A stretch of 64,000 nt of DNA. Source: Acidobacteriota bacterium. Its GTDB lineage: Bacteria; Acidobacteriota; Thermoanaerobaculia; Multivoradales; UBA5704. The position numbers were made by a program, and so were the translations under genes. The DNA lies in NCBI GenBank assembly GCA_040349255.1, contig JBEQUE010000005.1:2746-66745 (forward strand). Direction: 5' to 3'. Of the stretch, positions 10,407 to 59,519 are shown one piece after another; position 1 is the first letter of the stretch; every line of letters begins with the position of its first letter. A model generated the notes under the pieces. That model was not told where the DNA came from. It saw nothing but the letters and a program-made list of their open reading frames with translations, and did no database searches.

Positions 10407-10659
10407 TTGACGCGATTCAAGAGGCGCCATAAAGTAGCCAGGTCGATCAAGCTTAAGTACTTCGCCTGCTCATCGGGTCGCGCCTTCGGGCGCCGAGGAC
10501 TCCAGGAAGAGGTACGGACGACTCACGAATGAACAACGGGGCCGGCTGAGCCTGCCACTGCGGAGAGACGCGCTTCGCTATCCAGCGGGCCCGGCTGGAA
10601 AGGCCGGCGCTTCCTCGCCGCGGCTCTCCGGCCAGATCAATGTGGAGGCCGACTGATCC

Positions 10660-12511: not shown

Positions 12512-12598
12512 TCCCTACAGGCAGGCTCCGGGGCGGGACGGCGGCAGCCTTGGACACGGTGGCCGCCGTCCCTCTCAATTGTCAAGGAACCATGGTTC
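12512..12598. repeat. Inverted-repeat element, left copy (contains an 11-bp GC hairpin and a GAAC-CATG-GTTC palindrome)
   Basis: Region 12535-12596 matches the reverse complement of 13303-13363 at roughly 85 percent identity by hand alignment, with weaker similarity and an indel further out. The hairpin is GGGACGGCGGC (12535-12545) paired to GCCGCCGTCCC (12562-12572) with a 16-nt loop. It is followed by AGGAACCATGGTTCTT. Confidence 0.6.
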
Positions 12599-12900
12599 TT
12601 CCCGAGTGGCCAGGAAGAAGAGCCCGCTGAAGCAGTTCTTTTACGAGCCACCCGGGCAACACGTTCATGATACGCGGGCCGGCTCTGTTTTGAGCCTACC
12701 CTTTCAAAAAGGCACAAAAGTGCCCAAAACGACCCTCCAGAAAACAGAGCGAGCTCCAATCAAACGGGCACGAAATTGGTCTGGCCCGGTTTGTCACAAA
12801 ACAGGGGCCTCCGGCAACTATATATAGAGGACACCGGAATGCCGGGTCCGAAGGACTCCGAGGCGGCCAGATGTGCCGATCTGGCATGAGACAACACCTG

Positions 12901-13221
12901 GGAACCTTCTACGAGACGACGGAACGTTCTACGAGCCAAGGGAACGTTCTATATCAGAATGCAAGGTTCTATGAGCCGACGCAACGTTCTATGACGAAAT
13001 GGAAGGTTCTACGAGCCCCTGGAAGGTTCTACGGCGAAATGGAAGGTTCTACGAGCTGGCGGAACGTTCTACGGAGGAAATGGAAGGTTTTATGAGCCGA
13101 TGGAACGTTCTACACCGAAATGGAAGGTTCCAGGAGCCGATAGAACGTTCTATGCCGGAACGCAAGGTTCTACGGGCCGATGGAACGTTCTACGCCGAAA
13201 TACAACCTTCCGCTGCGATAA
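12901..13221. repeat. Phased tandem array 1: 16 units of 20 bp (one of 21), core GGAA[C/G]GTTCTAYG
   Basis: Units start at 12901, 12921, 12941, 12961, 12981, 13001, 13021, 13041, 13061, 13082, 13102, 13122, 13142, 13162, 13182 and 13202 (the last is degenerate). The right half shows a 40-bp A/B super-repeat (GGAAGGTTCTAYGAGCCGAT + GGAACGTTCTAYGCCGAAAT). The core GAACGTTC is palindromic. Confidence 0.9.
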
Positions 13222-13302
13222 ATCGGCCTCCCCGGCCGCAGGCAAGGTAACGGATCGGCAGGCTGGCTCGTAGAAGGACTCTGTAGGGATAGTCGTAAGG
13301 TT

Positions 13303-13393
13303 TCATGGTTCCTTGACAATCGAGAGGAATGGCGGCTGCCGGGTCCAAGGCCGCCGCCGTTCCGAACTGTTTCACCGGCCGGCGGGCATGTAG
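13303..13393. repeat. Inverted-repeat element, right copy
   Basis: Reverse-complement match to 12512-12598. The hairpin is GGAATGGCGGC (13326-13336) paired to GCCGCCGTTCC (13353-13363), with a 16-nt loop sharing GTCCAAGGC with the left copy. One stem position shows a compensatory change relative to the left copy (G-C to A-T). Confidence 0.6.
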
Positions 13394-40004: not shown

Positions 40005-40092
40005 CCCGCTCGCTCCGTCGATCCGCCCCTGCTCCCGGAGCCGGACTCCGGAGGCCGCCGCCTCCCGCTCATGCTAGGCTCCGTGCTCCGAC

Positions 40093-42816
40093 ATGGCCCT
40101 GCACCCCGGATTTCCCTCTTCACCCTACGACCTGCTGATCCCCGAGCACCGCTGGTTTCCGGCCGCCGAGGAGCTCCGGGCGACCGCCTACGAGAAGCTC
40201 CTGCCGCCGCTCGTGGCCCGGATCCGGACGGAGGTCGCGTCCTGGCGCGCCGCCGGGTACGCCGGCGCGTCCGCGACCTCGCGCGCCCTGCTCGCCTGGT
40301 GGTTCGAGCGCGAGCACCGGACCGAAGGGCCCGGAGGCGCGCAGAGCCTGTTCCGCTACTACTTCGCGCAGCGCGAGGCGGTCGAGACGGTCGTCTGGCT
40401 CCACGACGTCCGCGGCGTGCGCGACAGGTTCGACCTCCTGCGCTTCGACGCCTCGGGCGCCGTCTCCACCGGGATGTTCGACGAGGAGTGGCCGCGCTAC
40501 GTCGTCAAGATGGCCACGGGCGCGGGCAAGACCAAGGTCCTCGCGCTGCTCCTCGCCTGGAGCTACTTCCACCGGCTCTACGAGCCCGCCTCGACGCTGG
40601 CCCGGAACTTCCTCGTCATCGCGCCGAACATCATTGTCCTCGACCGCCTGCGCACCGACTTCGACGGCCTGCGGATCTTCTTCCGCGACCCCGTTCTGCC
40701 GCCGAACGGCTACGAGGGCAGGAGCTGGAGCGAAGACTTCCAGGTGGCGCTCCACCTGCAGGACGACGCGCGGGTGCTCCGGCCGACCGGCAATCTCTTC
40801 CTGACCAACATCCACCGCGTCTTCCTCGGCGACACCGCCGAGCCTTCGCCCGAGGACGACGACCTGCGCGACTACTTCCTCGCCCCGTTCGGACCGAAAC
40901 CCGTCGGCAAGACCTCCGACAGCCGGACCGACCTCGGCGAGATCGTCCGCGAGATCGACGAGCTGGCGATCTTCAACGACGAGGCCCATCACATCCACGA
41001 CGCCCGGCTCGCCTGGTTCCGGAGCCTCCAGGACATCCATCACCGCATGCTCCAGCGCGGCCGCTCCCTGTCGCTGCAGCTCGACCTGACGGCCACGCCG
41101 CGGCACGACAACGGCGCGATCTTCGTCCAGACCGTCTCCGACTACCCGCTGGTCGAAGCCATCCACCAGAACGTCGTGAAACACCCCGTACTGCCGGACG
41201 GCCCGAGCCGGGCGCGGCTCCACGAGCGGAAGAGCGCCATCTTCACCGAACGGTACGCCGACTACCTCGCTCTCGGCGTCGAGGAATGGCGCAAGAGTTA
41301 CGCCGAGCACGAGGCGCTCGGGAAGAAGGCGGTCCTCTTCGTGATGGTCGACGACACCCGCAACTGCGACGAGGTCGGCGCCTACCTGGAACGGATCTGC
41401 CCCGAGCTCCAGGAAGCCGTCCTGGTCATTCACACCAAAAACAACGGCGAGATCTCCGAGTCCGCCTCCGGCAAGAGCGTCGAGGAGCTGGACAGGCTCC
41501 GGCGAGCGGCCCATCAGATCGATACCTGGCAGAGCCCGTACAGGGCCATCGTGTCGGTGCTCGTGCTTAAGGAAGGCTGGGACGTCCGCAACGTGACCAC
41601 CATCGTGGGGCTCCGGGCCTACAGCTCGAAGAGCAAGATCCTCCCGGAGCAGACCCTGGGCCGCGGGCTCCGGCGGATGTACTTCGGCAGCGGGGCCCCG
41701 GAGACCGTCTCGGTCCTCGGCACGCCCGCGTTCATGGATTTCGTCGAATCCATCCAGACCGAGGGCGTGGTCTTCGAACGCGTGCCGATGGGCCCGGGGG
41801 CCGACCGGGCGGAGTCCCTGATCGTCGAGATCGATCCCGACAAGACAAAGGATTTCGAAGCGCTCGACATCTTCCTGCCCCGCCTGACCCGCCGCTACCA
41901 TCGCGCGTTCAAGGATCTCGATGCCCTGGACCCGGCGGACCTGGGCAATCCCCGGCTGGCCTTGAAGCCGTTCCGGCCCGAGGAGACGCGGGAGATCGTG
42001 TTCAGGACCATGCTCGAAGGAGAGGTCCATCACACCCTCCGCCTGGAAGGCTCCGGGCCGGCGGACTACCGCTCGGTGGTCGCCTTCTTCGCCCGGCAAC
42101 TGCTGCGGGAGATGCGGCTCGTCGGCGGCTACGACGCGCTCTACGGCCAGGTGAAGCGCTTCCTGCGCGACCACCTGTTCGAGGGCGGGCCCGCCGACCT
42201 CGAGGACCCGGTCGTGCTGCGGAACCTGTCCGAGCCCGAGCCGGGCAAGATCCTCTTAGACGCCTTCCGGAAAGCGATCAACGCGCTCACGCTGGAGGAG
42301 CGCGGCAGCGCCGCGGTCGAGGACTGGATCCGGGTCCGCGACACCCGCCCGTTCCGCACCGAGCCGCGGCCGTATCTCGTCCCGCGAAGGTCGCTCTTCA
42401 CGAAGATCGTCGGCGAGCCGCGCGCCGGCGGGCTGGAGCTCGAATTCGCCGCCTTCCTCGACCGCGCGCCCGGCGTGGCGGCCTTCGCCAAGAACTATTT
42501 CGCGGTCGGCTTCCAGCTCGACTACGTCAAGGCAAACGGCGACCTGTCGAGCTACGTGCCGGACTTCCTGGTCAGGACCGAGGACGGGACGGTCTTCGTG
42601 ATCGAGACCAAGGGCCGCGAGGAGATCGATCTGCCTCCGAAGATGAGGCGCCTGCGCCAGTGGTGCGCCGACGCCACTGGGGCCAGCCGGGCTGCCGGTG
42701 GCCCGGACTATCGCTTCGTCTACGTCGACCAGGCCGGCTTCCAGTCGCATCGGCCCGCGACCTTCGCCGGCCTGGTCGAAACCTTTCGGGAGTACCAGGG
42801 GGAGTACCAGGAATGA
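40093..42816 (+). CDS. res: Type III restriction enzyme Res subunit (SF2 helicase + PD-(D/E)xK nuclease)
   Basis: Walker A KMATGAGKTKV, DEAH box IFNDEAHHI, helicase C motifs (VLKEGWDVRNV), and a C-terminal nuclease motif SYVPDFLVRTEDGTVFVIETKGRE. Confidence 0.9.
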   Translation: MALHPGFPSSPYDLLIPEHRWFPAAEELRATAYEKLLPPLVARIRTEVASWRAAGYAGASATSRALLAWWFEREHRTEGPGGAQSLFRYYFAQREAVETVVWLHDVRGVRDRFDLLRFDASGAVSTGMFDEEWPRYVVKMATGAGKTKVLALLLAWSYFHRLYEPASTLARNFLVIAPNIIVLDRLRTDFDGLRIFFRDPVLPPNGYEGRSWSEDFQVALHLQDDARVLRPTGNLFLTNIHRVFLGDTAEPSPEDDDLRDYFLAPFGPKPVGKTSDSRTDLGEIVREIDELAIFNDEAHHIHDARLAWFRSLQDIHHRMLQRGRSLSLQLDLTATPRHDNGAIFVQTVSDYPLVEAIHQNVVKHPVLPDGPSRARLHERKSAIFTERYADYLALGVEEWRKSYAEHEALGKKAVLFVMVDDTRNCDEVGAYLERICPELQEAVLVIHTKNNGEISESASGKSVEELDRLRRAAHQIDTWQSPYRAIVSVLVLKEGWDVRNVTTIVGLRAYSSKSKILPEQTLGRGLRRMYFGSGAPETVSVLGTPAFMDFVESIQTEGVVFERVPMGPGADRAESLIVEIDPDKTKDFEALDIFLPRLTRRYHRAFKDLDALDPADLGNPRLALKPFRPEETREIVFRTMLEGEVHHTLRLEGSGPADYRSVVAFFARQLLREMRLVGGYDALYGQVKRFLRDHLFEGGPADLEDPVVLRNLSEPEPGKILLDAFRKAINALTLEERGSAAVEDWIRVRDTRPFRTEPRPYLVPRRSLFTKIVGEPRAGGLELEFAAFLDRAPGVAAFAKNYFAVGFQLDYVKANGDLSSYVPDFLVRTEDGTVFVIETKGREEIDLPPKMRRLRQWCADATGASRAAGGPDYRFVYVDQAGFQSHRPATFAGLVETFREYQGEYQE

Positions 42817-44930
42817 CCCGCCCGCGAGCCCCGAAGCACCACGACGCGCTCTCCGACGCCGAGAAGCGCGACCTGATCGAGCTGATCCAGCAGGGCAAGC
42901 CGCTGCCCGAGCGGTACCGCTTCCTGCTCTTCGAGGACAAGCGCGAGGTGGAGCTGGTCTGGAACGGCAAGACGCGGGACGTCTGCACGACCGTGCTCCC
43001 CTTCCAGAGCCTGGAGCACGTGGACGAGCCGCGCGAGGAGACGCGGGCGCAGCAGGAGCTTTTCGATTCCCGCGGGCGGCAGCTCGCGGGCTGGACCAAC
43101 AAGCTGATCTGGGGCGACAACCGGCTGATCCTCTCGTCTCTGAAGAGCGGACCCCTGCGCGAGCAGATCGAGGAGGCCGGCGGCCTCAAGCTCATCTACA
43201 TCGATCCGCCCTTCGACGTCGGCGCCGACTTCTCCATGGACATCGAGATCGGCGGCGAGACCTTTCACAAGGAGCCCAACCTCCTCGAGCAGATCGCCTA
43301 CCGCGACACCTGGGGCCGCGGCGCCGACAGCTTCATCAGCATGATCTCGGAGCGCCTGATCCTCATGCGGGACCTGCTGGCCGACGACGGCACTATCTTC
43401 GTGCACTGCGACTGGCGCGTGAGCGGCTACCTGCGCCTGGTGCTCGACGAGATCTTCGGCCGTGAGTCCCTCCGCAACCACATCCTGTGGCTTTACAGCG
43501 GAGGGGGCATCCCGACCACGGAGATGCCGAAGAAGCACGACGACATCTTCTGGTATTCGAAAGGCGACCGCTGGCAGTACAACCCGGTCTACAGGAATTA
43601 CTCCGAGGGGACGATGCAGCGCGGCCGGACCGCCGTCAAGGGAGAGAACGCGGCGCTCCGGAGCGAAGGCACGCCGATCAACAACTGGTGGCCCGACGTC
43701 AAGAAGATCACCAGCCCCACCGATCCGGAAAAGCTTTACTATCCGACCCAGAAATCCGAGGAGCTGCTCGAGCGCGTGATCACGCTCGCCAGCCGGAAGG
43801 GCGACCTGGTCGCCGACTTCTTCTGCGGCTCCGGCACCACCGCGGCCGTGGCAGAAAAGCTGGGGCGCAAGTGGATCGCCGTCGATCTCGGGAAGTTCGC
43901 CGTCCACACCACGCGCAAGCGGCTGATCGGCGTGCAGCGGGAGCTCAAGGAGCAGGGCAAGCCGTTCCGGGCGTTCGAGGTGCTGAACCTGGGACGGTAC
44001 GAGCGCCAGGCCTATCTCCACGTCGGCGGACGTCTCACGCCGGAGCAGCGCGAGCAGGCGCTGGCGGCGAAGGAACGCGAGTTCCGCGAGCTGATCCTGC
44101 GGGCCTACAAGGCGCAGCCGCTCGAAGAGGCCTCGTTCTTCCACGGCCGGACCGCGGGGCGGCTCGTCGTCGTCGGCCCGATCAACCTCCCCGTCGGCCG
44201 CCTGTTCGTCGAGGAGGTCATCACCGAGTGCCGCAAGCGCGGCGCCACGCGGGTGGATCTGCTCGCCTTCGAGTTCGAAATGGGACTCTTTCCCGCGGTC
44301 CTCCAGGAGGCGCGGCAGAAGGGCATCGATCTCACCCCCAGGTACATTCCGGCGGAGGTCTTCGACAAGCGCGCCGTGGACCGGGGCCAGGTCGTCTTCT
44401 TCGACATCTCCTTCATCGAAGCGACGCCGCGCCACGACTCCCGGAACCGGTTCGCCCTCAAGATCGAGCTGACCGACTTCTCCGTTCACTACAACCAGGG
44501 CCAGGCCGAGGACCTCGTCAAGGCCATCCGGGAAGGTAAAAACGACGTCCTCTGCGAGCAGGGCCAGCTCGTCAAGGTGACGAAGGACCGGAACGGAGTC
44601 GTCGCGCGCGAGGTGCTGACCCGGACATGGACCGACTGGATCGACTACTGGGCCGTGGACTTCAACTACGAGAGCCGCAAGGAGATCATCCGGGTGCCCA
44701 GAGGCCAGGGCCAGGACGACTCCGGAAACGCCGAGCTCGAGGACCGCTGGACCGGCGGCTACCTCTTCGAGAACGAATGGCAGAGCTTCCGCACGCGGAA
44801 GAACCGCGAGCTCGAGCTCCTCACCGCCCGGCATCTCTACGACCGGCCCGGCCGCTACACCGTGGCCGTCAAGGTGATCGACATCTTCGGCAACGACACC
44901 ATGACCCTCGTGCCGGTCAACATCGGCTGA
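42812..44930 (+). CDS. mod: Type III R-M Mod subunit (N6/N4 DNA methyltransferase, beta class)
   Basis: Motif IV IYIDPPF and motif I DLVADFFCGSGTTAAVAEKLGRKWIAVD. The ATG at 42812 overlaps the res stop (ATGA). The N-terminal part of track ORF 42660..44930 is an out-of-gene extension. Confidence 0.9.
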
Positions 44931-44940
44931 ACAAGGGCTT

Positions 44941-45380
44941 CTCCACCACAACGTTGCCTCGTTCACCGCAACGTCGGCTTCTCCACCGCAACTCAAGCTT
45001 ACGTTGCGGTGAAGAAGGTGAAGTTGCGGCAACTCAAAACGTATTCACCGCAACCCGGGCTTGTTCACCGCAACCTAACGATACTTTGCCGCAACGTCGC
45101 TTTCTTCACCGCAACCTTACTCCATTTTGCCGCAAACTGGAGATATTCACCGCAACGTCGTCTTCTTCACCGCAATTCAAGCTTCTCTGCTGCAACTCAA
45201 GGCGAAATTGCCGCAACGTCTCCTTGTTCACCGCAACGTCATGTTCTTCACCGCAACGCCGGCTTCTCTGCCGCAACGCCGCCTTGTCTGCCGCAACCTG
45301 CTCCCAGGTTGCGGCAAAACCCGGAGATGCGGCGAGTCGCCTCGGTTTCTGCCGCAACTTGCGGAGATTTGCCGCAACCT
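44941..45380. repeat. Phased tandem array 2: about 21 units of 20-21 bp, core (T)TCACCGCAAC / (T)TGCCGCAAC(GTC)
   Basis: Eighteen direct cores end at 44952, 44972, 44992, 45054, 45074, 45095, 45115, 45136, 45156, 45176, 45196, 45217, 45237, 45257, 45277, 45297, 45358 and 45378. Three inverted cores (GTTGCGG) lie at 45003, 45023 and 45307 and keep the same phase. The array starts about 10 nt after the mod stop and ends about 20 nt before the next ATG. Confidence 0.9.
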
Positions 45381-45397
45381 CATGATATCCTCCCTGC

Positions 45398-45904
45398 ATG
45401 AGCTCGAAGCTGTCGGTGGAGCAGATCCTGGCGAACCTGTCGCAGCGCGCGGCCCTTCATCGCAACAAGGAAGCCTTCCACGCACAGCAGGAGATCCATC
45501 ACCGGGAGCAACGGGCGCTCCATGCCGCCGAGCTCGCCAAGGTGGAGCAAAGCCTGGAGGCCCTTCAGGCCGTCGTGCCGTCCGCGATCGAGCTCGCCGC
45601 TCCGGTCCGGACCTCGCCGGCTCCGGCGATCTCGCAGGTAGCCCTGCCGGCCGAGGGACGCCTGATGGTCAGCCGGTTGCTGCGGCAGATCGCCCTGAGC
45701 CCCGACCTGGCCGAGCCGTTCGGCCCGACCTCGCTGGTCGCGGCGGCCAATCGCGCCTTTGCGGACCGCCTGCCCCGGCCGGTCGGACCGAGGACGGCTT
45801 CGGACGTGCTGCGCCGCATGCTCGCCGCCGGCGAGATCCAGCTCGCCCGCGACGGCAAGGCGTTTCACGAAGCCCTGTACGTCCGGAGGCCCGGGAAGGG
45901 CTGA
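45398..45904 (+). CDS. Hypothetical protein (168 aa), helical N-terminus, possible winged-helix-like C-terminus
   Basis: The ORF lies just downstream of array 2. The N-terminal part has a coiled-coil-like composition. The C-terminal ASDVLRRMLAAGEIQLARDGKAFHEALYVRR resembles a wHTH recognition helix plus wing. There is no SD, and no family was recognised. Confidence 0.5.
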   Translation: MSSKLSVEQILANLSQRAALHRNKEAFHAQQEIHHREQRALHAAELAKVEQSLEALQAVVPSAIELAAPVRTSPAPAISQVALPAEGRLMVSRLLRQIALSPDLAEPFGPTSLVAAANRAFADRLPRPVGPRTASDVLRRMLAAGEIQLARDGKAFHEALYVRRPGKG

Positions 45905-45906
45905 TC

Positions 45907-46470
45907 CTACCCCGCTGCCTCGTAGGCCTGCCGGATCCAGGCGACGAGCTCCGGATCGACCTCGGCGGCGTCGGCGACGTTCACCTTGTACTGGCACATG
46001 CCTCCGGCAGGCATGGCCAGGAGGCGCGGCGTCGCTTCGGCCCCTTTCATGTTCAGCCCCACTTCGACGCGCGTCTTCGTGGCCGGGCCGATCATGGCGA
46101 ACTGCTTCTTGCGCCGCAGGCTGACATAGCCCTTCTTGGGAGCGATCTCGAACGGTCCGAAGGCGTCGATGGCGGCCATGAGCCGGTCATGGATCGGCCG
46201 CAGGCCGGCCTTGCCGCCCGAGTAGATCTCGTCCAGGACGTCTCCGGAAGCCGCCGGCGCCGGGGCGCCTTCGGCAGCCTTCAGATACCTCTGCGTGAGA
46301 GTATTGGCATCCCCATGCCCCAGGCCGAGACTGCTCTTGAGCCAGTCGCGGATCTCGCCATGCTTCTGGAGGCCGCTCTCACGAACCAGGCTGAAAAGCT
46401 CGTCCAGGGACTTGCCGGTCTTTGCCTGGATGTTCCTGAGTTGGGTCTCAAACGCCTTGTCTACGTCCAT
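45907..46470 (-). CDS. DUF4287/DUF5655-like protein
   Basis: Start at MDVDKAFETQLRNIQAKTGKSLDELFSLV (preceded by GAGGAG). The C-terminal part is KKGYVSLRRKKQFAMIGPATKTRVEVGLNMKG. The longer track ORF 45907..46770 is an upstream extension. Confidence 0.65.
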   Translation of the reverse strand: MDVDKAFETQLRNIQAKTGKSLDELFSLVRESGLQKHGEIRDWLKSSLGLGHGDANTLTQRYLKAAEGAPAPAASGDVLDEIYSGGKAGLRPIHDRLMAAIDAFGPFEIAPKKGYVSLRRKKQFAMIGPATKTRVEVGLNMKGAEATPRLLAMPAGGMCQYKVNVADAAEVDPELVAWIRQAYEAAG

Positions 46471-46786
46471 GGATCTCCTCATCAAGAAATCCGAGCTCTG
46501 AGCCGACAAACCCGGCTGTCCCCTCAGGACCGGAGAGCTCGAGCCAGACCGGTCCTCCGTCGGGAAGGACATCGAGCCTGAAATGGAGGAAGCGGCAGCA
46601 CTGTCGCTCCAGCTCGATGACGCGGGCGATGTCCGCGAGGACGCCCGGCGCGGCTTCGAAGCGGAGGCGAATCCCGTTCTCGATCGCCAGCGCCTCGGCG
46701 CACCGGGCCCGCAGCGCGGCCAGGACCTCACGGCGCTGGTCAAGCTCGGCAGCGGTGAGAGAGCAGGCAATGGGGATGTCGGTCAT
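46448..46786 (-). CDS. Hypothetical small protein (112 aa, CC motif)
   Basis: MTDIPIACSLTAAELDQRREVLAALRARC ... ELERQCCRFLHFRL. The composition looks coding, but no domain was recognised. Confidence 0.4.
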   Translation of the reverse strand: MTDIPIACSLTAAELDQRREVLAALRARCAEALAIENGIRLRFEAAPGVLADIARVIELERQCCRFLHFRLDVLPDGGPVWLELSGPEGTAGFVGSELGFLDEEIHGRRQGV

Positions 46787-46795
46787 GGTTTCAAC

Positions 46796-51436: not shown

Positions 51437-52303
51437 TCAGGTCCGGACGTCCAGCGCCACGTCGAGCGCCGGCGAGCTGTGGGTGAGCCAGCCGACGGAG
51501 ATCATGTCCACGCCGGTGGCGGCGACCGCTGGCGCCGTCTGCGGCGTGATGCCGCCGGAGGCTTCGGTCAGGGCCTTGCCTTTGGCGAGGGCCACGGCCT
51601 CTCTCAGGGTCTCGATCGACATGTTGTCCAGGAGGACGACGTCGACTCCCAGGTCCAAGGCTTCGCGGAGCTGGTCCAGGGAGTCCACCTCCAGCTCGAT
51701 CTTCACCAGGTGGCCGACGTAGGCGCGGGCGCGCTCCACGGCCGGACGGATGCCTCCGGCCAGGGCCACGTGGTTGTCCTTGATCAGGACGGCGTCGTCG
51801 AGGCCGAAGCGATGGTTGCTGCCGCCTCCGGCCTTGACCGCGTATTTCTCCAGCGCCCGCAGGCCGGGCGTGGTCTTGCGGGTGCAGACGATGCGCGTGC
51901 CGTGCGGCGCAACCAGCGCCACGAGGTCGCGGGTGGTGGTCGCCACGCCGCAGAGCCGGCCGAGAAGGTTGAGCGCAGTGCGTTCGGCCGAGAGGAGCGA
52001 GCGCGCCGGGCCTCGCACCACGGCCAGGGTCTCGCCCGCGGCGGCGTCCCGGCCGTCCCGCTTCTGAAACTCGATGTCCACCGTGGGATCGAGGATGCGG
52101 AAGGCGGAGACCGAGGCCTCCAGGCCTGCCACGCGGCCCGGTTTGCGGGACACGATCAGGGCTTCGGCCTTCAGGTCCGGCGGCAGGACCGCGTCGCTGG
52201 TCAGGTCGCCGGCCCGGCCGAGGTCCTCTTCGAGCGCCCGCCTCACGAGTGGCTCGTAGAGGAGGGGCGGGAGGGAGGCGAGCCGCGGCTCGGTCGCGCT
52301 CAC
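51437..52303 (-). CDS. nadC: Nicotinate-nucleotide pyrophosphorylase (carboxylating)
   Basis: LVRRALEEDLGRAGDLTS, CTRKTTPGLRALEKYAV, HRFGLDDAVLIKDNH, ASGGI. The GTG start at 52303 forms a GTGA overlap with the nadB stop. The track ORF is over-extended to 52603. Confidence 0.9.
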   Translation of the reverse strand: MSATEPRLASLPPLLYEPLVRRALEEDLGRAGDLTSDAVLPPDLKAEALIVSRKPGRVAGLEASVSAFRILDPTVDIEFQKRDGRDAAAGETLAVVRGPARSLLSAERTALNLLGRLCGVATTTRDLVALVAPHGTRIVCTRKTTPGLRALEKYAVKAGGGSNHRFGLDDAVLIKDNHVALAGGIRPAVERARAYVGHLVKIELEVDSLDQLREALDLGVDVVLLDNMSIETLREAVALAKGKALTEASGGITPQTAPAVAATGVDMISVGWLTHSSPALDVALDVRT

Positions 52304-53886
52304 CGCGCCACCGCCAGCCGCGGCTCCGGAGCTCCGGAAGCTTCGAAGACAGCCGAGCCGTCGGGCGCGGCGGTCAGGTACAGGCGGTGCTGCCAGTCGG
52401 GATCGGTCTGCGGGAAGTCGGAGCGGTAGTGGCCTCCCCGGCTCTCGCGCCGGGCGAGCGCCGCGGCCGCGACCAGGCGCGCCACGCCGAGGAGGTTCCT
52501 CGCCTCCCCCGCCGCTTCCGGCGAGGCCTCGGACAGCGCATCCAGCTCGGACAGCGCCGCGGTCAGACCCTCCTCGTCCCGCACGACGCCGACCTTCTCC
52601 CACAGGATGCGGCGGACGGCGTGCTTCAGCTCGGCGTCCCGGGGAGTGCCCCGGGGAACCCTGGGAGCCTGGCGACCGGAAGGCGCGCGCCCGCCGGCGG
52701 AGCCCCGCAGGTCCTCCGCCACGCGGGCGCCGAAGACGAGCGCCTCCAGCAGCGAGTTGCTCGCCAGGCGGTTGGCCCCGTGGACGCCGGTCGAGGAGAC
52801 CTCGCCGCAGGCCCAGAGGCCGGAGAGCGACGACCGGCCGAGGCCGTCCACGGCGATGCCGCCCATGTGGTAGTGCGCGGCCGGCGCCACCGGCATCGGC
52901 TCGACGCGCGGGTCGAGACCGTGCTGCCGGCAGAGCTCGAAGACGGTCGGGAAGCGCTCGGGGAACTCGTCGCCGACGGCCTCGCGGGCGTCCAGGAAGA
53001 CCCGGCGGCCAGCCATCAACTGGCGCCAGATCGCCCGCGCCACCACGTCGCGCGGCGCCAGCTCGGCGTCGGCGTGCTCGTCCTTCATGAAACGGACGCC
53101 GTGGTCGTCGATCAGGACCGCGCCCTCGCCGCGCAGCGCCTCGGTCAGGAGCGGCATGGGCTCGCCCTCGGTTTCCACGGCCAGCGCGGTGGGATGGAAC
53201 TGGACGAACTCCAGGTCGACGAGCCGCGCGCTGGCCCGCGCCGCCATGGCCAGGCCGTCACCCGTGGCCTCGCGCGGGTTCGTGGTACGGAGGTAGAGCT
53301 GGCCCGGGCCGCCCGTCGCGAGCACGACGGCGTTCGTCAGGTGGAGCACCGGGCGGCCATCCTCGTGGATGGCGAGCACGCCGGTCACCCGGCCGTCCTC
53401 TGCGAGAATCAGATCGACCGCGAAGGCGCGCTCCTCGACCTTGACCTCGGGCGCGTGGCGCACGGCTTCGGCCAGGGTACGGACGATCTCGGAGCCCGTC
53501 GCGTCCCGGGCGTGGAGGATGCGGCGGCGGCTGTGCGCGGCCTCGCGGCCCAGGTCGAGCTCGCCGGCGGTGTCGCGGTCGAAGCGCGCTCCGAGGTCGA
53601 GCAGGGCCTTGACCCGCTCCGGACCTTCGCCGGTCAGCAGGCCCACGGCCCGCGGATCGCAGAGCCCGGCGCCGGCCGAGAGGGTGTCCGCGGCGTGGAG
53701 CTTCGGCGTGTCGTCGGCGCCGAGCGCCGCGGCCACGCCGCCCTGCGCCCACGGGCTGGAGCCGCTGACCAGCGTGGCCTTGGTGAGCACGGTCACGGAG
53801 AGCGGCGCGCAGCCGAGCGCCGCGGTCAGGCCCGCGGCGCCGCTGCCGACCACCAGGACGTCCGAGCGCTCGATGCGAGCGTTCAC
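52300..53886 (-). CDS. nadB: L-aspartate oxidase
   Basis: The FAD motif [16 protein letters not shown], then [18 protein letters not shown] and RESRGGHYR. The GTG start at 53886 forms a GTGA overlap with the nadA stop. The upstream part of track ORF 52300..54816 is wrong-frame. Confidence 0.9.
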
Positions 53887-54929
53887 TTGCCCTCCCGGCG
53901 CCCGACGGCGAGCATCCGGTCCAGGGCGAGCTTCGCCCGCGCTCCCACCTCCGGATCGACGTGGACCTCGTACTGCATCGTCTGCAGCGACCGGAGGATC
54001 TTCGGCAGCGTGATCCTCTTCATGTGCGGGCAGAGCTGGCACGGGCGGACGAACTCGACGTCCGGGAACTCCACGGCCACGTTGTCGCTCATCGAGCACT
54101 CGGTGATCATCACCACCCGCCGCGGCCGGGTGTCGCCCACGCGGCGGATCATGGCCGCGGTGGAGCCCACGAAGTCGGCCTCGGCCAGGACGTCCGGCGG
54201 GCACTCGGGGTGGGCCAGGATCTCGATCTCGTCGCCCCGTCCATAGGCCTGGCGGTACTGGCGCAGGTCCTCGCCCGTGAAGCGCTCGTGGACCTCGCAG
54301 TGGCCCTTCCAGAGGATGAGCTGGACGTCGGTCTGGGAGGCCACGTACTTGCCCAGGTATTCGTCGGGCAGGAAGATGACGCGGTCGACGCCCAGCGACT
54401 CGACCACGGCCACGGCGTTGGCCGAGGTGCAGCAGATGTCGGACTCGGCTTTCACCTCGGCCGAGGTGTTGACGTAGGTCACCACCGGCACGCCGGGGTA
54501 GCGCTCCCGGAGCAGCCGGATGTCCGCGCCCGTGATCGAGGCGGCGAGCGAGCAGCCGGCCTCCAGGTCCGGGATCAGGACGGTCTTCTCCGGCGACAGG
54601 ATCTTGGCGGTCTCGGCCATGAAGTGGACACCGGCCAGGACGATGACGTCGGCCTCGGTCTTCGCGCCCTGCTGGGCGAGCGCCAGGGAGTCGCCCGCGA
54701 AGTCGGCGACGCCGTGGTAGATCTCGGGCGTCTGGTAGTTGTGCGCCAGGATCACGGCGTTCCTCTGCCGCTTCAGCTCGTTGATCGCCGCGATGTACGG
54801 CGCATGGATCGGCCATTCGAGGTCGGGCAGGACCGGCGCCACCTTCTCGCGGAGCGCGGCCGTGGCGCGGGCGACCTCGGGGGTGTACTCCAGGACGGCG
54901 GAGGTGTTCGAAGCGTCCAGAAGGCCCAT
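53883..54929 (-). CDS. nadA: Quinolinate synthase
   Basis: [46 protein letters not shown] and CPHMKRITL. Start taken at MGLLD (54929), because a palindromic operator-like site occupies the longer track extension. Confidence 0.9.
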
Positions 54930-54944
54930 TCTCTCTATCCCTTC

Positions 54945-54963
54945 TATGCTCATCCTGAGCATA
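54945..54963. promoter_or_regulatory. Palindromic operator candidate upstream of nadA (possible NrtR site)
   Basis: TATGCTCA-TCC-TGAGCATA has perfect 8-bp arms and lies 15 nt upstream of the nadA ATG. A related imperfect copy, TATGCTAC-GAC-TGAGTATT, sits at 55007-55025. Confidence 0.4.
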
Positions 54964-55093
54964 TGCACGGTATGAAGAAAGGCCGGGATGTCCCGACCTT
55001 CCTGCTTATGCTACGACTGAGTATTAGCTCATGTCAAGAGCGCGCGGCGGATCCGTGTCGCCGCTGTGACGTACAACAGAGGGGAGGCAAGAA

Positions 55094-56062
55094 CTATGCC
55101 TTGAGCGCTCCGCGACCGACCCCCGGCGCCGGTCTTTCCCGGAGCACGCTGCGGCGGAAGCGGAACAGCTCGGCCGGCCGGCCGCCGGTGCGCACGTCCT
55201 TGCCGGTGCCTTCGACGAGGCCGCCGTGCTCGACCAGGCGGCGGAAGTTCTGCTTGTGGAGCGGCGTCCCGGTGAGGGCCTCCACTACGGTCTGGAGCTG
55301 CAGGAGGGTGAAGGTGGCCGGCAGCAGCTCGAACACGACCGGCCGGTAGCGGATCTTTCCGCGCAGGCGCCCGAGCGCGGTGGCCAGGATGCGGCGGTGG
55401 TCCAGGGTCATGGGCCGGCCGGAAGGAAGGCCGTCCTCCGGGACAGCTCCCTCGCCGCGCTCCCGCCGATCCCGGCGGGCCTCGGGCAGGAGCAGGGCCT
55501 CGTAGAGCAGCTCGTAGCGTTCGAGCACGCGGTCCGGGTCCCAGTGCGCGCCGCCGAGGCCGAAGGCGATATCGGCGCGCTCGCGGCGGGCCTCGGGCGC
55601 GCCGGCGATCCAGGCTTCCAGGGCCGGAGCAATATCGCCGATATCGCGGTCGAGCGCCCGGGGCCGGCCGCGGCGCCAATCCTCCCATGGGAAGTAGTCG
55701 TACCAGTCGCGCCAGCTCGCCTCGCCCTTGACCGAGGCCTCCCGGACCAGCGCGAGGTAGGCCACGGAGACGAGCCGCGGCCCGCCATGGCTCTCGGCCG
55801 GATCGCGATTGCCGTCGCCGAAGGTGTAGAGCTGCTCGACGTAGCCCAGCGGGAGCCCGGTCTGCTCGGTCACCCAGCGGCGCAGGCCGCGGTCGAGAGT
55901 GCGGTCGAGCTCGGGCTCCAGCGGTCCGAACGGCAGCGCGTCCTCGGCCGGCCCGCCGGACGGAGGCGTCCTGCGGATCGTGAGGATCCGGGGCACCTCC
56001 TCCGTGACCGCCACGATCACGGCGTTGAGGCCGAGGTCGACGCGCGGAGCTCCGGCAGCCAT
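55094..56062 (-). CDS. NrtR-like regulator (Nudix-like domain + C-terminal winged helix)
   Basis: A Nudix-fold-like N-half (LNAVIVAVTEEVPRILTIRR ... LPFGPLEPE) and a C-terminal FTLLQLQTVVEALTGTPLHKQNFRRLVEHGGLVEGTG...GGRPAELFRF. Lies just upstream of nadABC. Its ATG overlaps the lipB 3' end by 46 nt. Confidence 0.75.
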   Translation of the reverse strand: MAAGAPRVDLGLNAVIVAVTEEVPRILTIRRTPPSGGPAEDALPFGPLEPELDRTLDRGLRRWVTEQTGLPLGYVEQLYTFGDGNRDPAESHGGPRLVSVAYLALVREASVKGEASWRDWYDYFPWEDWRRGRPRALDRDIGDIAPALEAWIAGAPEARRERADIAFGLGGAHWDPDRVLERYELLYEALLLPEARRDRRERGEGAVPEDGLPSGRPMTLDHRRILATALGRLRGKIRYRPVVFELLPATFTLLQLQTVVEALTGTPLHKQNFRRLVEHGGLVEGTGKDVRTGGRPAELFRFRRSVLRERPAPGVGRGALKA

Positions 56063-56736
56063 GACGTCCAGGGATCGGAATCGGAGACCGGCTCGCGCCC
56101 GAGGATCTCGGCCAAGTGGCGCGCGCAGGCGGCGGCGACGTCGGGTAGCGCCGGGGTCTGGCCCGTCAGGCGCTCGATCGAGGTCATCTCGACCTGGTTC
56201 AGGCCGCACGGGATGATCCCCGAGAAGTAGGACAGGTCGGTCGAGACGTTCAAGGCGAAGCCGTGGGTGGTGACCCAGCGCGAGAGATGGACGCCGATCG
56301 AGGCGATCTTGCTCTTCCCCACCCAGATTCCGATGAACGCCGCCTCCTCGCCAGGCCGGCCCTCGATGCCATAGCCGGCGAGCGTCCGGAGGAGCGCCTC
56401 CTGCAAGTCGCGCACGTAGCGCCGGATGTCCCGCCGGTCCGGGCTCAGGTTGACGATCGGATAACCGACGAGCTGCCCGGGGCCGTGGTAGGTCACCTGG
56501 CCGCCGCGGTCGCACTCGGCGACCTCGACCCCGCGGGCCTGGAGCCAGTCGGAGCCGGCCAGCACGTCCGAGCCGTCGGCGTTGCGGCCCAGGGTGTAGA
56601 CGTGCGGGTGCTCCAGGAGGAGGAAGCGCTCCGGTCCCTCTCCGCTCTTCACCGCCTCGCGCACGTCGAGCTGCAGCTCGACGGCCTCGCCGTAAGGGAT
56701 GCGTCCGAGCCAGCTCCAGTGAAGAGCACGCGACAT
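56017..56736 (-). CDS. lipB: Octanoyltransferase (lipoyl(octanoyl) transferase)
   Basis: FLLLEHPHVYTLGRN, ECDRGGQVTYHGPGQLVGYPI, KIASIGVHLSRWVTTHGFALNV. Confidence 0.9.
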   Translation of the reverse strand: MSRALHWSWLGRIPYGEAVELQLDVREAVKSGEGPERFLLLEHPHVYTLGRNADGSDVLAGSDWLQARGVEVAECDRGGQVTYHGPGQLVGYPIVNLSPDRRDIRRYVRDLQEALLRTLAGYGIEGRPGEEAAFIGIWVGKSKIASIGVHLSRWVTTHGFALNVSTDLSYFSGIIPCGLNQVEMTSIERLTGQTPALPDVAAACARHLAEILGREPVSDSDPWTSWLPELRASTSASTP

Positions 56737-56791
56737 GGGCCCGCATTGTACGGCAGTGCTATAAGATACGCGCTCACTTGGGAGGGGGATC

Positions 56792-58054
56792 ATGGAGAAG
56801 GTGGTCACAGCGATCCTCGGTGGTGGGCAGGGCAGCCGTCTCTGGCCCTTGACGCGGCACCGCGCCAAGCCGGCGGTGCCGATCGGCGGCAAGTTCCGCC
56901 TCATCGACATCCCGATCAGCAACAGCCTGCACGCCGGCATCGACCGGATCTTCGTCATCACGCAGTTCAACAGCGCGAGCCTGCACCGCCACATCGCGCA
57001 GACCTACCGCTTCAGCGCCTTCTCGCTCGGCTTCGTGAACATCCTGGCCGCGGAGCTGACCACGGAGCGCAAGGACTGGTTCCAGGGCACGGCGGACGCG
57101 GTGCGCCAGTGCCTGCCGCGCCTGCTGGAGTCGGACCCGCCCGAGGTGCTGATCCTGTCGGGCGACCAGCTCTACATGATGAACATCTCGGAGTTCATCC
57201 AGACGCACCGCAACCGGCAGGCCGACCTGACGATCGCGGTCAAGCCGGTGACGCGCGAGGAGGCGACGGGCTTCGGCATCCTGCGCCTCGACCCCTCGGG
57301 CCGCATCATCGAGTTCGTGGAGAAGCCCAAGGACCCGGCCCTGCTCGACGAGCTCGCGCTCGACGCGCAGACCCAGGCCGCGCTCGGCTTCCCGGCGCCT
57401 CAGGGTTCGTACCTCGCGAGCATGGGCATCTACGTGTTCAAGTCCGAGGTGCTGACCGAGCTCCTCGTGGGCAGCACGACGGTCGACTTCGGCCGCGAGG
57501 TGATCCCCCAGTCGCTCGGCCAGTACAAGGTCTACGCCTATCCCTACGAAGGCTACTGGACGGACATCGGCACGATCCCGAGCTTCCACCGGGCGAACCT
57601 GGACCTCACGCTGCCGCTGCCGCCGCTCAACATGTACGACCCCGAGCTGCGGATCTTCACCCACCCGCGCTTCCTGCCGGGCACGAAGGTCAACGAGTGC
57701 TTCGTGCGCTGGTCGATCCTGAGCGAGGGGAGCATCCTGTCGGGCAGCCGGGTGGAGGACTCGATCATCGGCGTCCGCGCCGTGGTGCGGGAAGGCGCGG
57801 TCATCGAGCGCACCGTGGTGATGGGCGCCAACTCCTGGGAGAGCCTCAACGGCAGCCCCGAGATCCCGATCGGCATCGGCCGCGACTGCCACATCCGCAA
57901 CGCGATCCTCGACTTCAACGTCCGCATCGGCGACGGCTGCCGGCTGCTCAACGAGGCCGGGGTCGAGAACGCCGACAACGAGCAGTACGCGATCCGCGAC
58001 GGCATCATCGTGGTCATGAAGAACGCCGTCCTGCCTCCGGGGACCGTGATCTGA
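56792..58054 (+). CDS. glgC: Glucose-1-phosphate adenylyltransferase
   Basis: ILGGGQGSRLWPLTRHRAKPAVPIGGKFRLIDIPISN, WFQGTADAV and a left-handed beta-helix C-terminus. Confidence 0.95.
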   Translation: MEKVVTAILGGGQGSRLWPLTRHRAKPAVPIGGKFRLIDIPISNSLHAGIDRIFVITQFNSASLHRHIAQTYRFSAFSLGFVNILAAELTTERKDWFQGTADAVRQCLPRLLESDPPEVLILSGDQLYMMNISEFIQTHRNRQADLTIAVKPVTREEATGFGILRLDPSGRIIEFVEKPKDPALLDELALDAQTQAALGFPAPQGSYLASMGIYVFKSEVLTELLVGSTTVDFGREVIPQSLGQYKVYAYPYEGYWTDIGTIPSFHRANLDLTLPLPPLNMYDPELRIFTHPRFLPGTKVNECFVRWSILSEGSILSGSRVEDSIIGVRAVVREGAVIERTVVMGANSWESLNGSPEIPIGIGRDCHIRNAILDFNVRIGDGCRLLNEAGVENADNEQYAIRDGIIVVMKNAVLPPGTVI

Positions 58055-59493
58055 TGCGCATTTGCCAGGTCGCGGCGGAGGTGGCTCCGTTCGCCAAGAC
58101 AGGCGGGCTGGGCGACGTGGTCGGAGGCCTGTCGGCGTACCTCGGCCGCGCGGGCCACGATGTCCGCATCGTGATGCCGTTCTACGGCCAGCTCGCGCGG
58201 CGGCCGGAGACTTTCATCCCGGTGGACTTCATCCAGCGCGTGCCGATCCCGATGGGCGGCCGGCTGTTCTCGGTCTCGGCGCTCACCTGCAAGCTGCCCG
58301 GCAGCGACGTGGACGTCTATTTCGTCTCCTGCCCCGAGCTCTATGCGCAGGAAGGGATCTATCACGGCGACGGGTCAGACGGAGTCCGCTTCGGCGTGCT
58401 CACCCGGGCCGCGTTCGAGCTCTGCCAGCGCATGGGCTGGGGCCCGGACGTCGTCCACTGCCACGACTGGCACACCGCGCTCGCGCCGGTCTATCTCAAG
58501 GCGCTGTACGACTGGGACCGGCTGTTCGACCGCACGCGGACCGTGCTGACGATCCACAACATGGCCTTCCAGGGCTATCTGTCCGCCGGATACGTGAACG
58601 ATCTCGGCCTCGGGAAGCATGGCTGGATGCTGGACACCGCGGGCGGGGCCTTCAACGTGCTCAAGAACGGGTTGATCCACGCCGACGCGATCACGGCCGT
58701 GAGCCGCACCTACGCCCGCGAGATCCAGGGCGACCAGGGCTTCGGCCTGGACTGGCTGCTGCGGGCGCGCGCGGACCGGCTGTTCGGCATCGTCAACGGC
58801 GTGGACTACGGCGAGTGGGATCCGCAGCGCGATCCGCACCTGCCGTTTCACTACTCCGCCGACGACCTCGCGGGCAAGCGGGAGATGAAGCGGACGCTCC
58901 TCAAGGAGACCGGGATCGGGGAGGGGGATCTCGAAACGCCGATCGTCGGAATCGTCTCGCGCCTGACTGCTCAGAAAGGTTTTGAATTGGGCTTCGACGT
59001 CCTGCCGGCCCTTCTGGCACGGCGGAACTTCCGCCTGATCGCGCTCGGCAGCGGCGAGCCGAAGTACGAGGACTTCTTCCAGTGGCTCCAGTGGCGCTTC
59101 GCGGGCCGGGCCTGGTTCTACCGCGGCTTCCACAACCCGCTCGCGCACTGGATCGAGGCGGGTGCCGACCTCTTCCTGATGCCGTCGCGCTTCGAGCCCT
59201 GCGGCCTGAACCAGATGTACAGCCTGCGCTACGGCACGCCGCCGATCGTCCGGAAGACCGGCGGCCTGGCCGACACGGTCGAGCCCTGGAACGCGCAGAC
59301 CGGCCAGGGCACCGGCTTCGTCTTCGAGCACTTCGACGCCGAAGGGCTACGCTGGGCTCTGGACACGGCGCTCGACGCCTGGGAGGACCGCGCCTCCTGG
59401 GGCCGCCTCATGCGCAACGGCATGGAGAAGGACTACTCCTGGGACGTGCAGGGCCGGGAGTACGAAGAGCTCTACCGGCGGTTCGCGGGATAG
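58054..59493 (+). CDS. glgA: Glycogen synthase (ADP-glucose type)
   Basis: MRICQVAAEVAPFAKTGGLGDVV and PSRFEPCGLNQMY. The ATG overlaps the glgC stop (TGATG). It is only the last 479 codons of track ORF 56263..59493. Confidence 0.95.
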   Translation: MRICQVAAEVAPFAKTGGLGDVVGGLSAYLGRAGHDVRIVMPFYGQLARRPETFIPVDFIQRVPIPMGGRLFSVSALTCKLPGSDVDVYFVSCPELYAQEGIYHGDGSDGVRFGVLTRAAFELCQRMGWGPDVVHCHDWHTALAPVYLKALYDWDRLFDRTRTVLTIHNMAFQGYLSAGYVNDLGLGKHGWMLDTAGGAFNVLKNGLIHADAITAVSRTYAREIQGDQGFGLDWLLRARADRLFGIVNGVDYGEWDPQRDPHLPFHYSADDLAGKREMKRTLLKETGIGEGDLETPIVGIVSRLTAQKGFELGFDVLPALLARRNFRLIALGSGEPKYEDFFQWLQWRFAGRAWFYRGFHNPLAHWIEAGADLFLMPSRFEPCGLNQMYSLRYGTPPIVRKTGGLADTVEPWNAQTGQGTGFVFEHFDAEGLRWALDTALDAWEDRASWGRLMRNGMEKDYSWDVQGREYEELYRRFAG

Positions 59494-59519
59494 AGGGGCG
59501 CAGACGTCTGCGCCCCTCC
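59494..59519. terminator. Bidirectional intrinsic-terminator-like hairpin between glgA and the convergent Cys-rich gene
   Basis: GAGGGGCGCAGAC-GTCTGCGCCCCTC is a perfect 26-nt GC-rich palindrome directly after the glgA stop. The flanks are only weakly T-rich. Confidence 0.6.

Follow-up and report, generated by a model that had tools for sequence, protein, structure and literature searches.

A phased 20-bp repeat array as a candidate multi-site binding platform for an adjacent predicted winged-helix protein in Thermoanaerobaculia

In the 64,000-nt stretch of Acidobacteriota DNA analysed here (the window), a 440-bp array of short phased repeats, array 2, lies between the mod gene of a Type III restriction-modification (R-M) system and a gene for a 168-amino-acid (168-aa) hypothetical protein, which raises the question of which neighbour the array belongs to and what it does. 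An initial annotation had proposed an operator or nucleoprotein platform for the downstream protein, a cluster of Type III recognition sites, or an iteron- or centromere-like remnant of an integrated element. The first of these was strengthened by the linkage of array and gene, by the conservation of the repeat cores and by the joint change of repeat sequence and recognition helix. It is the reading favoured here, at a probability of about 0.65 judged from co-location, conservation and predicted fold: array 2 would be the cognate multi-site DNA-binding platform of the adjacent winged-helix protein, which would also autoregulate its gene. The features concerned are as follows.

44941-45380, + strand: repeat array (array 2) of about 21-23 units on a 20-21-bp lattice, from core scan, Tandem Repeats Finder and pooled logo
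44984-45033, no strand assigned: distal orientation switch, with a direct unit (44984-44992) facing the inverted units GTTGCGGTGAA (45003-45013) and GTTGCGGCAAC (45023-45033)
45308-45336, - strand: third in-phase inverted unit (45308-45318), then the degenerate inverted unit GATGCGGCGAG (45326-45336)
45352-45378, no strand assigned: promoter-proximal units, with the palindrome CCGCAACTTGCGG (45352-45364) and the last direct unit TTTGCCGCAAC (45368-45378)
45383-45391, + strand: extended -10-like motif TGATATCCT (TGnTATCCT), from cross-locus conservation
45398-45904, + strand: gene of the 168-aa protein, NCBI ABUT39_00525 (hypothetical protein of an Acidobacteriota metagenome-assembled genome (MAG), identical to the window protein)

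Array 2 spans nearly all of 44931-45397. Since the mod stop codon is at 44928-44930 and the next ATG at 45398, it fills the spacer between mod and the 168-aa open reading frame (ORF), as had been claimed, and its direct units read on the + strand, the strand of the downstream gene. Tandem Repeats Finder reported arrays of period 20, 41 and 81 over 44941-45297. The core scan gave 18 direct CCGCAAC-type cores 20-21 bp apart, starting at 44946 (degenerate), 44966, 44986, 45048, 45068, 45089, 45109, 45130, 45150, 45170, 45190, 45211, 45231, 45251, 45271, 45291, 45352 and 45372, and three in-phase inverted GTTGCGG cores starting at 45003, 45023 and 45308. The 18 direct and 3 inverted units of the initial annotation were thereby confirmed, and the two palindromes named there are present at the coordinates given. 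Two further units were not in it: the degenerate inverted one at 45326-45336 and a half-phase inverted one within the palindrome at 45352-45364. The array is low in GC, as noted before, with 56% against 68% for the window. A coding origin of the repeats was ruled out because the period is no multiple of 3 and one indel is 41 bp.

The motif YNCCGCAAC occurs 24 times in the window, compared with 5.19 ± 2.09 times in shuffled sequences, and none of 100 shuffles reached 24; 17 of the 24 copies fall within the 440 bp of the array. Outside array 2 the CCGCAAC 7-mer is not enriched in the window (9 exact copies per strand, with about 7 expected from a composition estimate). The phase was said to be kept even across inverted units. 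This holds for a site defined as the 11-mer TTCACCGCAAC with its 6th base as centre, which gives centre distances of 20, 21, 20 and 21 over the first orientation switch, but not with the 7-mer core as ruler, which leaves a 3-bp offset at inverted units. The site size also follows from this agreement with the 11-mer.

The site consensus T(C/T)(C/T)(A/G)CCGCAACnT, of 11-13 bp, was derived from 266 pooled units of 15 arrays. Beyond the 7-mer by which the units had been found, there are still 0.5-1.05 bits at positions -4 to -1 and 0.74 bits at +8, with about 0.1-0.3 bits at spacer positions. Direct-direct centre distances in these arrays were exactly 20 bp in 150 of 217 cases and 19-21 bp in 84%, while 10% measured 39-42 bp, that is, one unit skipped. 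Phase was kept at 9 of 15 head-to-head junctions, mostly of 20-21 bp, and at 7 of 16 tail-to-tail junctions.

Array 2 was compared unit by unit with the array of locus L196, which is about 85% identical to the window at the nucleotide level and syntenic with it (L196 10544-18658 corresponds to window 51437-59496). The two arrays align unit for unit, with the inverted units at the same positions and the head-to-head junction of 44984-45033 present in both, and they differ in length only by indels of 21 bp and 41 bp, which are one and two units. The 11-nt cores were 85% identical and the spacers 54% (Fisher p = 1.6e-12), a difference indicating that the cores are under selective constraint. Logan contigs encoding an identical 168-aa protein were 100% identical to the window and so uninformative on variation.

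Whole-unit indels and quick spacer turnover are also what neutral satellite DNA would show, and a function at the RNA level (a transcribed repeat or a protein-sponge RNA) might be suspected from the folding of array 2, both strands of which fold better than shuffles (z = -5.5 and -7.8). The z-scores are significant because inverted units pair with direct units, so that the fold signal is trivial. No significant Rfam match was found: nothing reached the gathering score across the window, and a permissive scan of 44000-46500 gave only chance-level matches, the best (E = 0.07) at 46427-46500, outside the array. Moreover, the predicted promoter described below faces away from the array, at whose 3' end it is located, the cores but not the spacers have been conserved across family-level divergence, and inverted copies that stay in phase are typically found where a site is recognised in double-stranded DNA. 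A satellite or RNA explanation is thus very improbable. A CRISPR array, which would have repeats of 23-50 bp, unique spacers about as long and cas genes or a leader, was rejected for array 2 with its 11-nt cores, 9-nt spacers and no cas gene among the Pfam-scanned neighbours, and a mobile repeat of the repetitive extragenic palindromic (REP) or miniature inverted-repeat transposable element type was rejected for array 2, as there are no flanking inverted or terminal repeats around the array, its module, its relatives or the gene-less arrays described below.

The relation between array and gene was then followed across the main subfamily of the protein in ten loci: seven relatives on long contigs for which genomic context was fetched (L192, L193 and L195-L199), together with L013, L269 and the window. 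All ten carry a CCGCAAC-core array upstream of the family gene, made up in nine of them of 12-22 direct and 0-5 inverted units, with a period of 19 bp in L013, alternating 20/21 bp in L198 and 20 bp in most loci. The linkage of array and gene is obligatory in this subfamily. The flanking genes are unrelated among loci; upstream neighbours include CoA-binding, NUDIX, DUF6431 with a Mu-type transposase, ketoacyl synthase and DUF4287/DUF5655 genes, as well as an unannotated ORF beside a YCII gene. Gene-linked loci lie on contigs of 0.2-8.4 Mb with housekeeping neighbours, and in the window the neighbouring genes are chromosomal too (PDH E1, adenosine deaminase, an ECF sigma factor, an MFS transporter and alcohol dehydrogenase). 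Array and gene probably constitute a self-contained chromosomal module conserved in Thermoanaerobaculia.

Species-representative genomes scanned for three CCGCAAC cores spaced 19-21 bp apart gave at least 120 matches; among the matches listed, most were unrelated 7-bp and 21-bp satellites, and true relatives of the array occurred only in four Thermoanaerobaculia MAG contigs (L013, L047, L063 and L101), with a CACCGCAAC core, a variable part of 9-11 nt and a period of 19-20 bp. Downstream of the L013 array lies a homologue of the 168-aa ORF. The same pattern found no true relatives in viral contigs. A metagenome scan with a stricter 20-bp pattern, which did not forbid a 10-bp sub-period, was dominated by an unrelated 10-bp satellite, and 6 of the 120 matches listed were relevant.

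These loci also bear on the proposal that array 2 is a cluster of recognition sites for the Type III Mod/Res enzyme, serving as a methylation-sensitive switch or self-targeting buffer. Array 2 does lie directly 3' of a Type III mod gene (42660-44930; Pfam N6_N4_Mtase, PADLOC MTase_III), and the array of L063 lies 3' of a type I hsdR gene. Among the ten main-subfamily loci, however, an R-M gene stands upstream of the array only in the window (0 of the 9 others). Furthermore, L196 has lost res and mod, with a RhuM gene in their place and remnants of 103 bp and 47 bp, yet it keeps the orthologous array with conserved cores, and genomes that must differ in their R-M complements share the conserved core. 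The recognition-site proposal is therefore hardly credible: array 2 is independent of R-M genes, and their adjacency in the window is incidental.

The surroundings of the module differ between the window (40090-46790) and L196 (1416-10510), with other neighbours on both sides and all pieces in the same orientation. The gene order is mod, module, DUF4287/DUF5655 in the window and DUF4287/DUF5655, module, nadC in L196, and 5.5 kb of the window (46.8-51.4 kb) are absent from L196.

Arrays without a family gene nearby, here called orphan arrays, were found as well. The three with both flanks visible all lie between convergent genes:

L101: 16 units, between a 166-aa ORF and a MgsA/RarA gene
L249: 17 units, with Kup on one side and a POT transporter on the other
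L318: 23 units, with a SpoIIE-type phosphatase on one side and an SLT transglycosylase on the other

In L101, the ORF of 166 aa upstream of the array was considered as a family member and rejected, being unrelated to the family. The L063 array is the second one on the 5.9-Mb contig of L192, from which it is separated by about 2 Mb, and it is truncated on its downstream side. L209 (reverse complement 3037-3330) holds an array, a promoter-like motif, GTGTATCCT, and three proximal units, with no family gene downstream and a REP-like element in its place. This locus may be a module after loss of its gene.

The family of the 168-aa protein comprises at least 374 relatives, 160-175 aa long, all hypothetical and none with a Pfam domain; all those with a taxonomic name are Thermoanaerobaculia or Acidobacteriota. 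An exhaustive profile search with the family gave 400 clusters at 50% identity. For the window protein itself there was no match in Pfam, PHROGs, NCBIfam or PADLOC, and a sequence search of the PDB gave nothing below E = 0.17. The AlphaFold2 model, built on a 41-sequence alignment, has a predicted local distance difference test (pLDDT) score of 82.7 and consists of a single long helix (residues 7-67), a disordered linker (68-89, with pLDDT below 50 at 68-81) and a C-terminal winged helix (90-163) with the order helix-helix-helix-strand-strand. The best Foldseek matches of this domain were the winged-helix DNA-binding domains of PadR, Fur, Zur and MarR, and one divergent family member, P0200, shows a sub-threshold Fur/Irr winged-helix match. 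Purifying selection acts on the gene of the 168-aa protein, with a ratio of nonsynonymous to synonymous substitution rates (dN/dS) of 0.35-0.43; in the comparison of the window with L196, dS is 0.31 and dN/dS 0.35, and the neighbouring nadC-like gene has a dN/dS of 0.16.

On the N-terminal helix, histidines stand at exact heptad spacing (H21, H28, H35 and H42; window 45458-45523), H28 and H35 being invariant in the 41 homologues, and some divergent members carry one or two extra FHxxQEx heptads. This histidine face may be a metal- or pH-sensitive oligomerisation face. In L269 (7329-7813) the family gene, which lies behind an array with the TGATATCCT motif, was recovered in two tblastn segments in different frames, owing either to a frameshift (pseudogene) or to a sequencing error.

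The protein and the repeats change together. The predicted recognition helix of the window protein reads R-T-A-S-D-V-L-R-R-M-L, and all loci with the CCGCAAC core have the motif ASDxLRRML in this helix. Divergent subfamilies, at 29-40% identity, keep the architecture with another recognition helix, and the upstream repeats differ as well:

P0223 (L320): helix RQISVSLRWLA, 12 units of GCCGCGCAAC at 21 bp
P0200 (L322): helix ATVGRTLLRFG, about 11 direct and 6 inverted units of TCCGCGACAG at 21 bp
P0140 (L323): helix RAVSVTLRRLA, irregular GCCGCGAT repeats
P0176 (L321): helix HQIADTLRRMH, no clear array in the available 318 bp

P0140 and P0025, the latter of the main subfamily, carry the same VIA62 locus-tag prefix, and are therefore two paralogues in one genome.

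That another trans-acting factor, such as DnaA or a response regulator of the OmpR/PhoB type, binds the repeats and the 168-aa gene is merely its target would not explain why the repeat core tracks the adjacent recognition helix. Some units of L101, L195 and L199 read TTATCCACC and agree with the DnaA box TTATCCACA at 8 of 9 positions, and direct repeats of the TTCAC type resemble response-regulator boxes. In the pooled logo, however, the 5' positions of the DnaA box (-7 to -5) hold 0.1-0.3 bits, whereas GCAAC, which is outside the box, is nearly invariant, and the final A of the box is C here; the period of response-regulator boxes is 10-11 bp, compared with 20 bp in array 2. A foreign factor is consequently an improbable explanation. 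A DnaA-box cluster like those of oriC, datA or DARS (repeated TTATNCACA) was rejected on the same grounds, since conservation is centred on CCGCAAC and is lowest at the box positions.

The gene-proximal end of the array carries a candidate promoter. The pattern TGnTA[TGA][ACT][CAT]T has exactly one match in the 720 nt upstream of nine of the ten family genes. This match is invariably at the end of the array nearest the gene, 15-122 nt ahead of the ATG; in L013, GTTATAATCC takes its place. There was no match in the orphan arrays or in L209. The identification of this motif as a promoter is our inference from its conservation across loci. Most loci have one or two further units, often CCGCAACCTGGAC, just downstream of the -10-like motif, and then a Shine-Dalgarno sequence. 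In the window, the hexamer TATCCT occupies 45386-45391, with its last T 6 nt before the A of the ATG, and the last unit of the array (45368-45378) ends 7 nt upstream of it. L196 has a leader of 93 nt which is deleted in the window, so that a leaderless or near-leaderless mRNA is predicted there. Autorepressed genes of centromere-binding or iteron-binding proteins typically show a layout like the one predicted here.

Taken together, these observations suggest a mechanism in which the C-terminal winged helix would read the 11-13-bp consensus site. About 20 such sites, placed 20 bp apart and thus just under two helical turns, could let neighbouring proteins joined through their N-terminal helices coat the roughly 440 bp as a cooperative filament. 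The filament would end on the extended -10 promoter of the gene, and in most relatives it would also cover the one or two units downstream; as it would reach the promoter, high occupancy should shut the gene off by negative autoregulation. The same protein would also load on the orphan arrays elsewhere in the chromosome. The result would be very large complexes at a few loci, which the system might bridge or anchor.

Several points weigh against this reading. Its evidence is indirect and consists of co-location, conservation and a predicted fold. The Foldseek E-values were weak (about 5e-3) and point only to a generic winged helix. The co-change of helix and repeat covers only four specificity classes. 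One divergent member (P0176) has no clear array in the 318 bp available, and the P0140 repeats are irregular. A generic sigma-70 and terminator scan found no promoter or terminator, and the window copy is without the leader and the downstream operator unit found in most relatives. Finally, twenty sites far exceed the needs of an autoregulatory operator. Autoregulation cannot be the whole function, because of this excess and because no promoter is regulated by the orphan arrays that lie between convergent genes; site number, promoter-less orphan arrays and coexisting paralogues point to a function beyond it.

One possibility for that function, of rather low probability, is a centromere-like or chromosome-anchoring complex, that is, a partition or positioning site or a loop anchor for which autoregulation is a by-product. 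It would extend the cognate-platform reading and does not contradict it, and it could work without a dedicated NTPase, as pSK1 Par and R388 StbA/stbS do. Phased direct repeats with a few inverted ones, upstream of the gene for the binding protein and overlapping its promoter, are the architecture of plasmid centromeres (bioRxiv 10.1101/2022.04.29.490116; PMC7783346), and a coiled coil, a linker and a DNA-binding domain are found in the bridging proteins H-NS and Rok (PMC6936261, PMC6212790). The large number of sites and the orphan arrays in promoter-less convergent intergenic regions would fit as well. On the other hand, there is no gene of the ParA/ParM/TubZ type or other conserved partner gene beside the family gene in any locus, and contigs of 0.2-8.4 Mb are chromosomal, where a ParABS system of their own would be expected (an expectation only).

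The systems closest in design are pSK1 Par and R388 StbA/stbS, in which the gene of a small DNA-binding protein lies behind phased direct repeats holding its own promoter, with no NTPase partner, as in the module described here. The pSK1 site has seven direct repeats and one inverted repeat. Both proteins are autoregulators and centromere binders; pSK1 Par combines a helix-turn-helix (HTH) domain with a coiled coil, stbS comprises 2 x 5 repeats of 9 bp with an 11-bp period, and StbA also binds smaller repeat sets elsewhere on the replicon, which can be likened to the orphan arrays (bioRxiv 10.1101/2022.04.29.490116; PMC11500499). These systems are on plasmids, whereas the present module is chromosomal and class-wide, with about 20 sites and a 20-bp period. 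In addition, the domain order is reversed, with the coiled coil N-terminal and the winged helix C-terminal, and the 168-aa protein showed no sequence similarity to Par or StbA in the Pfam, PHROGs, NCBIfam and PDB searches described above. KfrA of plasmid RA3 is similar in having an HTH and a long alpha-helical oligomerising part, and the -10 element of its promoter is surrounded by operator repeats of 9 bp in either orientation (PMC7783346). KfrA differs in its five repeats, N-terminal HTH, plasmid location and partners KfrC, IncC and KorB, compared with about 20 sites, most of them upstream of the promoter, and no Pfam KfrA match here.

In ParR/parC and TubR/tubC, a small dimeric protein binds cooperatively to phased iterons that immediately precede the operon and coats them as a superhelical filament, and TubR is a winged-helix protein, like the fold predicted here. 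The parC of pSK41 uses 20-bp repeats. To our knowledge these systems always come with an adjacent ParM or TubZ motor gene, and such a gene was present in none of the 13 loci examined; neither ParA, ParM nor TubZ NTPase genes stand beside the family gene in the window, L192, L193, L195-L199 or L323. What the module has in common with Par centromeres is an upstream array ending at a conserved TGnTATCCT motif shortly before the ATG. ParR and TubR centromeres have 4-10 sites, compared with 12-24 here. The tubC centromere is made of seven 12-bp repeats (bioRxiv 10.1101/2022.04.29.490116).

The remaining proposal of the initial annotation, an iteron- or centromere-like remnant, was right about the architecture and wrong about a remnant, since the module is conserved and under selection on megabase chromosomal contigs. 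In its iteron form, array 2 would be the origin or incompatibility array of an integrated plasmid-like element and the 168-aa protein a minimal Rep initiator. Theta-plasmid iterons (P1, F and RK2), like those bound by RctB of Vibrio chromosome 2, are direct repeats of 17-22 bp with a period near two helical turns, an embedded promoter and titrating extra arrays, and array 2 likewise has direct repeats with a period of 20-21 bp, about two helical turns, upstream of a predicted winged-helix gene with the promoter embedded. The gene-less arrays resemble control arrays of the incA type, and the neighbours of the module differ even between relatives at 85% nucleotide identity. Rep initiators, though, have two winged helices, at least 250 residues and Pfam families, and their origins include an AT-rich unwinding element and DnaA boxes. 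Here the protein has 168 residues and a single winged helix and belongs to no Rep family in Pfam, NCBIfam or PHROGs, neither an AT-rich element nor DnaA boxes were seen beside array 2, the neighbours are housekeeping genes on megabase contigs, and the module is conserved across the whole class. A replication origin is thus very unlikely.

H-NS, Lsr2, MvaT and Rok begin with an oligomerising helix, followed by a flexible linker and, at the C-terminus, a small DNA-binding domain, which in Rok is a winged helix (PMC6212790, PMC6936261). The same three-part layout is predicted by the AlphaFold2 model of the 168-aa protein, in which oligomerisation is putative, and the DNA bound by these proteins is lower in GC than the genome, as array 2 is relative to the window. 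They bind degenerate AT-rich DNA genome-wide, whereas the putative target here is a specific 11-13-bp site in dedicated arrays. A tentative further reading, again of rather low probability, is a dedicated, sequence-specific chromosome-architecture system of Thermoanaerobaculia with an H-NS/Rok-like layout, which would assemble only on purpose-built 20-bp-lattice arrays, the one at its own gene and those at orphan sites, and serve bridging, anchoring or motorless segregation. Its coiled coil would possibly be switchable through the histidines, and a genome might hold paralogue-array pairs of several specificities (P0025 and P0140 of VIA62).

Across all these comparisons, the likeness to partition, iteron, KfrA and H-NS/Rok systems is one of design only, as neither homology nor a motor or Rep gene was found. 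No description of the array-gene module was found in the searchable literature or in family libraries. The new aspect would be a phased array with a cognate autoregulated protein that is chromosomal, class-wide, motor-less and unusually large. If this is true, a little-studied class of bacteria has conserved a protein-DNA system that had not been characterised before. The known systems of like design (ParR/parC, TubR/tubC, StbA/stbS, pSK1 Par, KfrA and iterons) are plasmid devices with 4-10 sites, and a chromosomal, motor-less and non-replicative version would broaden the roles known for such arrays. It would also provide compact candidate protein-site pairs of distinct specificity, usable as tools.

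The window contains a second array, array 1 (12901-13201), whose existence was confirmed. Its 15 units have the core G(G/C)AA(C/G)GTTCTA(C/T)G plus 7 variable nt, with a 40-bp superperiod, and lie inside a pair of 61-nt inverted repeats (12534-12594 and 13304-13364, 87% complementary). The initial annotation had joined both arrays into a class linked to defence genes. This was not supported for array 2, and array 1 could not be linked to its system: array 1 differs in core, sits in an inverted-repeat-bounded element and, like the rest of the window, has no family paralogue; the AACGT sub-motif shared by the two arrays is too short to carry weight. No repeats like those of array 1 were seen in any fetched locus; it may be the array of another protein or a mobile element. 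Within the 61-nt pair, array 1 has partial units on either side that form a second pair (12634-12665 and 13249-13280), and the 831-bp non-coding block 12534-13364 looks like an inverted-repeat-bounded element. As for the restriction genes at 40093-44930, a ResIII-helicase gene precedes mod, their longest ORFs overlapping by 157 nt; Type III systems are usually ordered mod, then res.

Other repeats were met in the scans. The 10-bp satellite mentioned above (CACACTGCAA/CACACCGCAA) is unrelated to array 2 and packs low-GC contigs (42-50% GC in examples) among L200-L319, which are Joint Genome Institute (JGI) metagenome contigs such as Ga0105053 and Ga0335398; it forms many blocks per contig, of up to about 69 units and in both orientations. 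A REP-like palindrome, CCTGGGACCGCCGGCATCCTGCCGGC, has seven copies in L193 (9458-11350), on both sides of the family gene and of a Y1_Tnp transposase gene of the REP-associated tyrosine transposase (RAYT) type (10645-11181), and single copies beside the arrays of L063 (about 416) and L209 (about 7598). Sorangium chromosomes have 20-21-bp tandem arrays of their own, GACCGCAACC(C/T)GGGTCGGG(G)T, which have the CCGCAAC heptamer in common with array 2 but not its variable-spacer structure, the units being highly homogeneous. These are located at L012 6420-6760 (15 units), L085 7760-8000 and L007 5380-5610.

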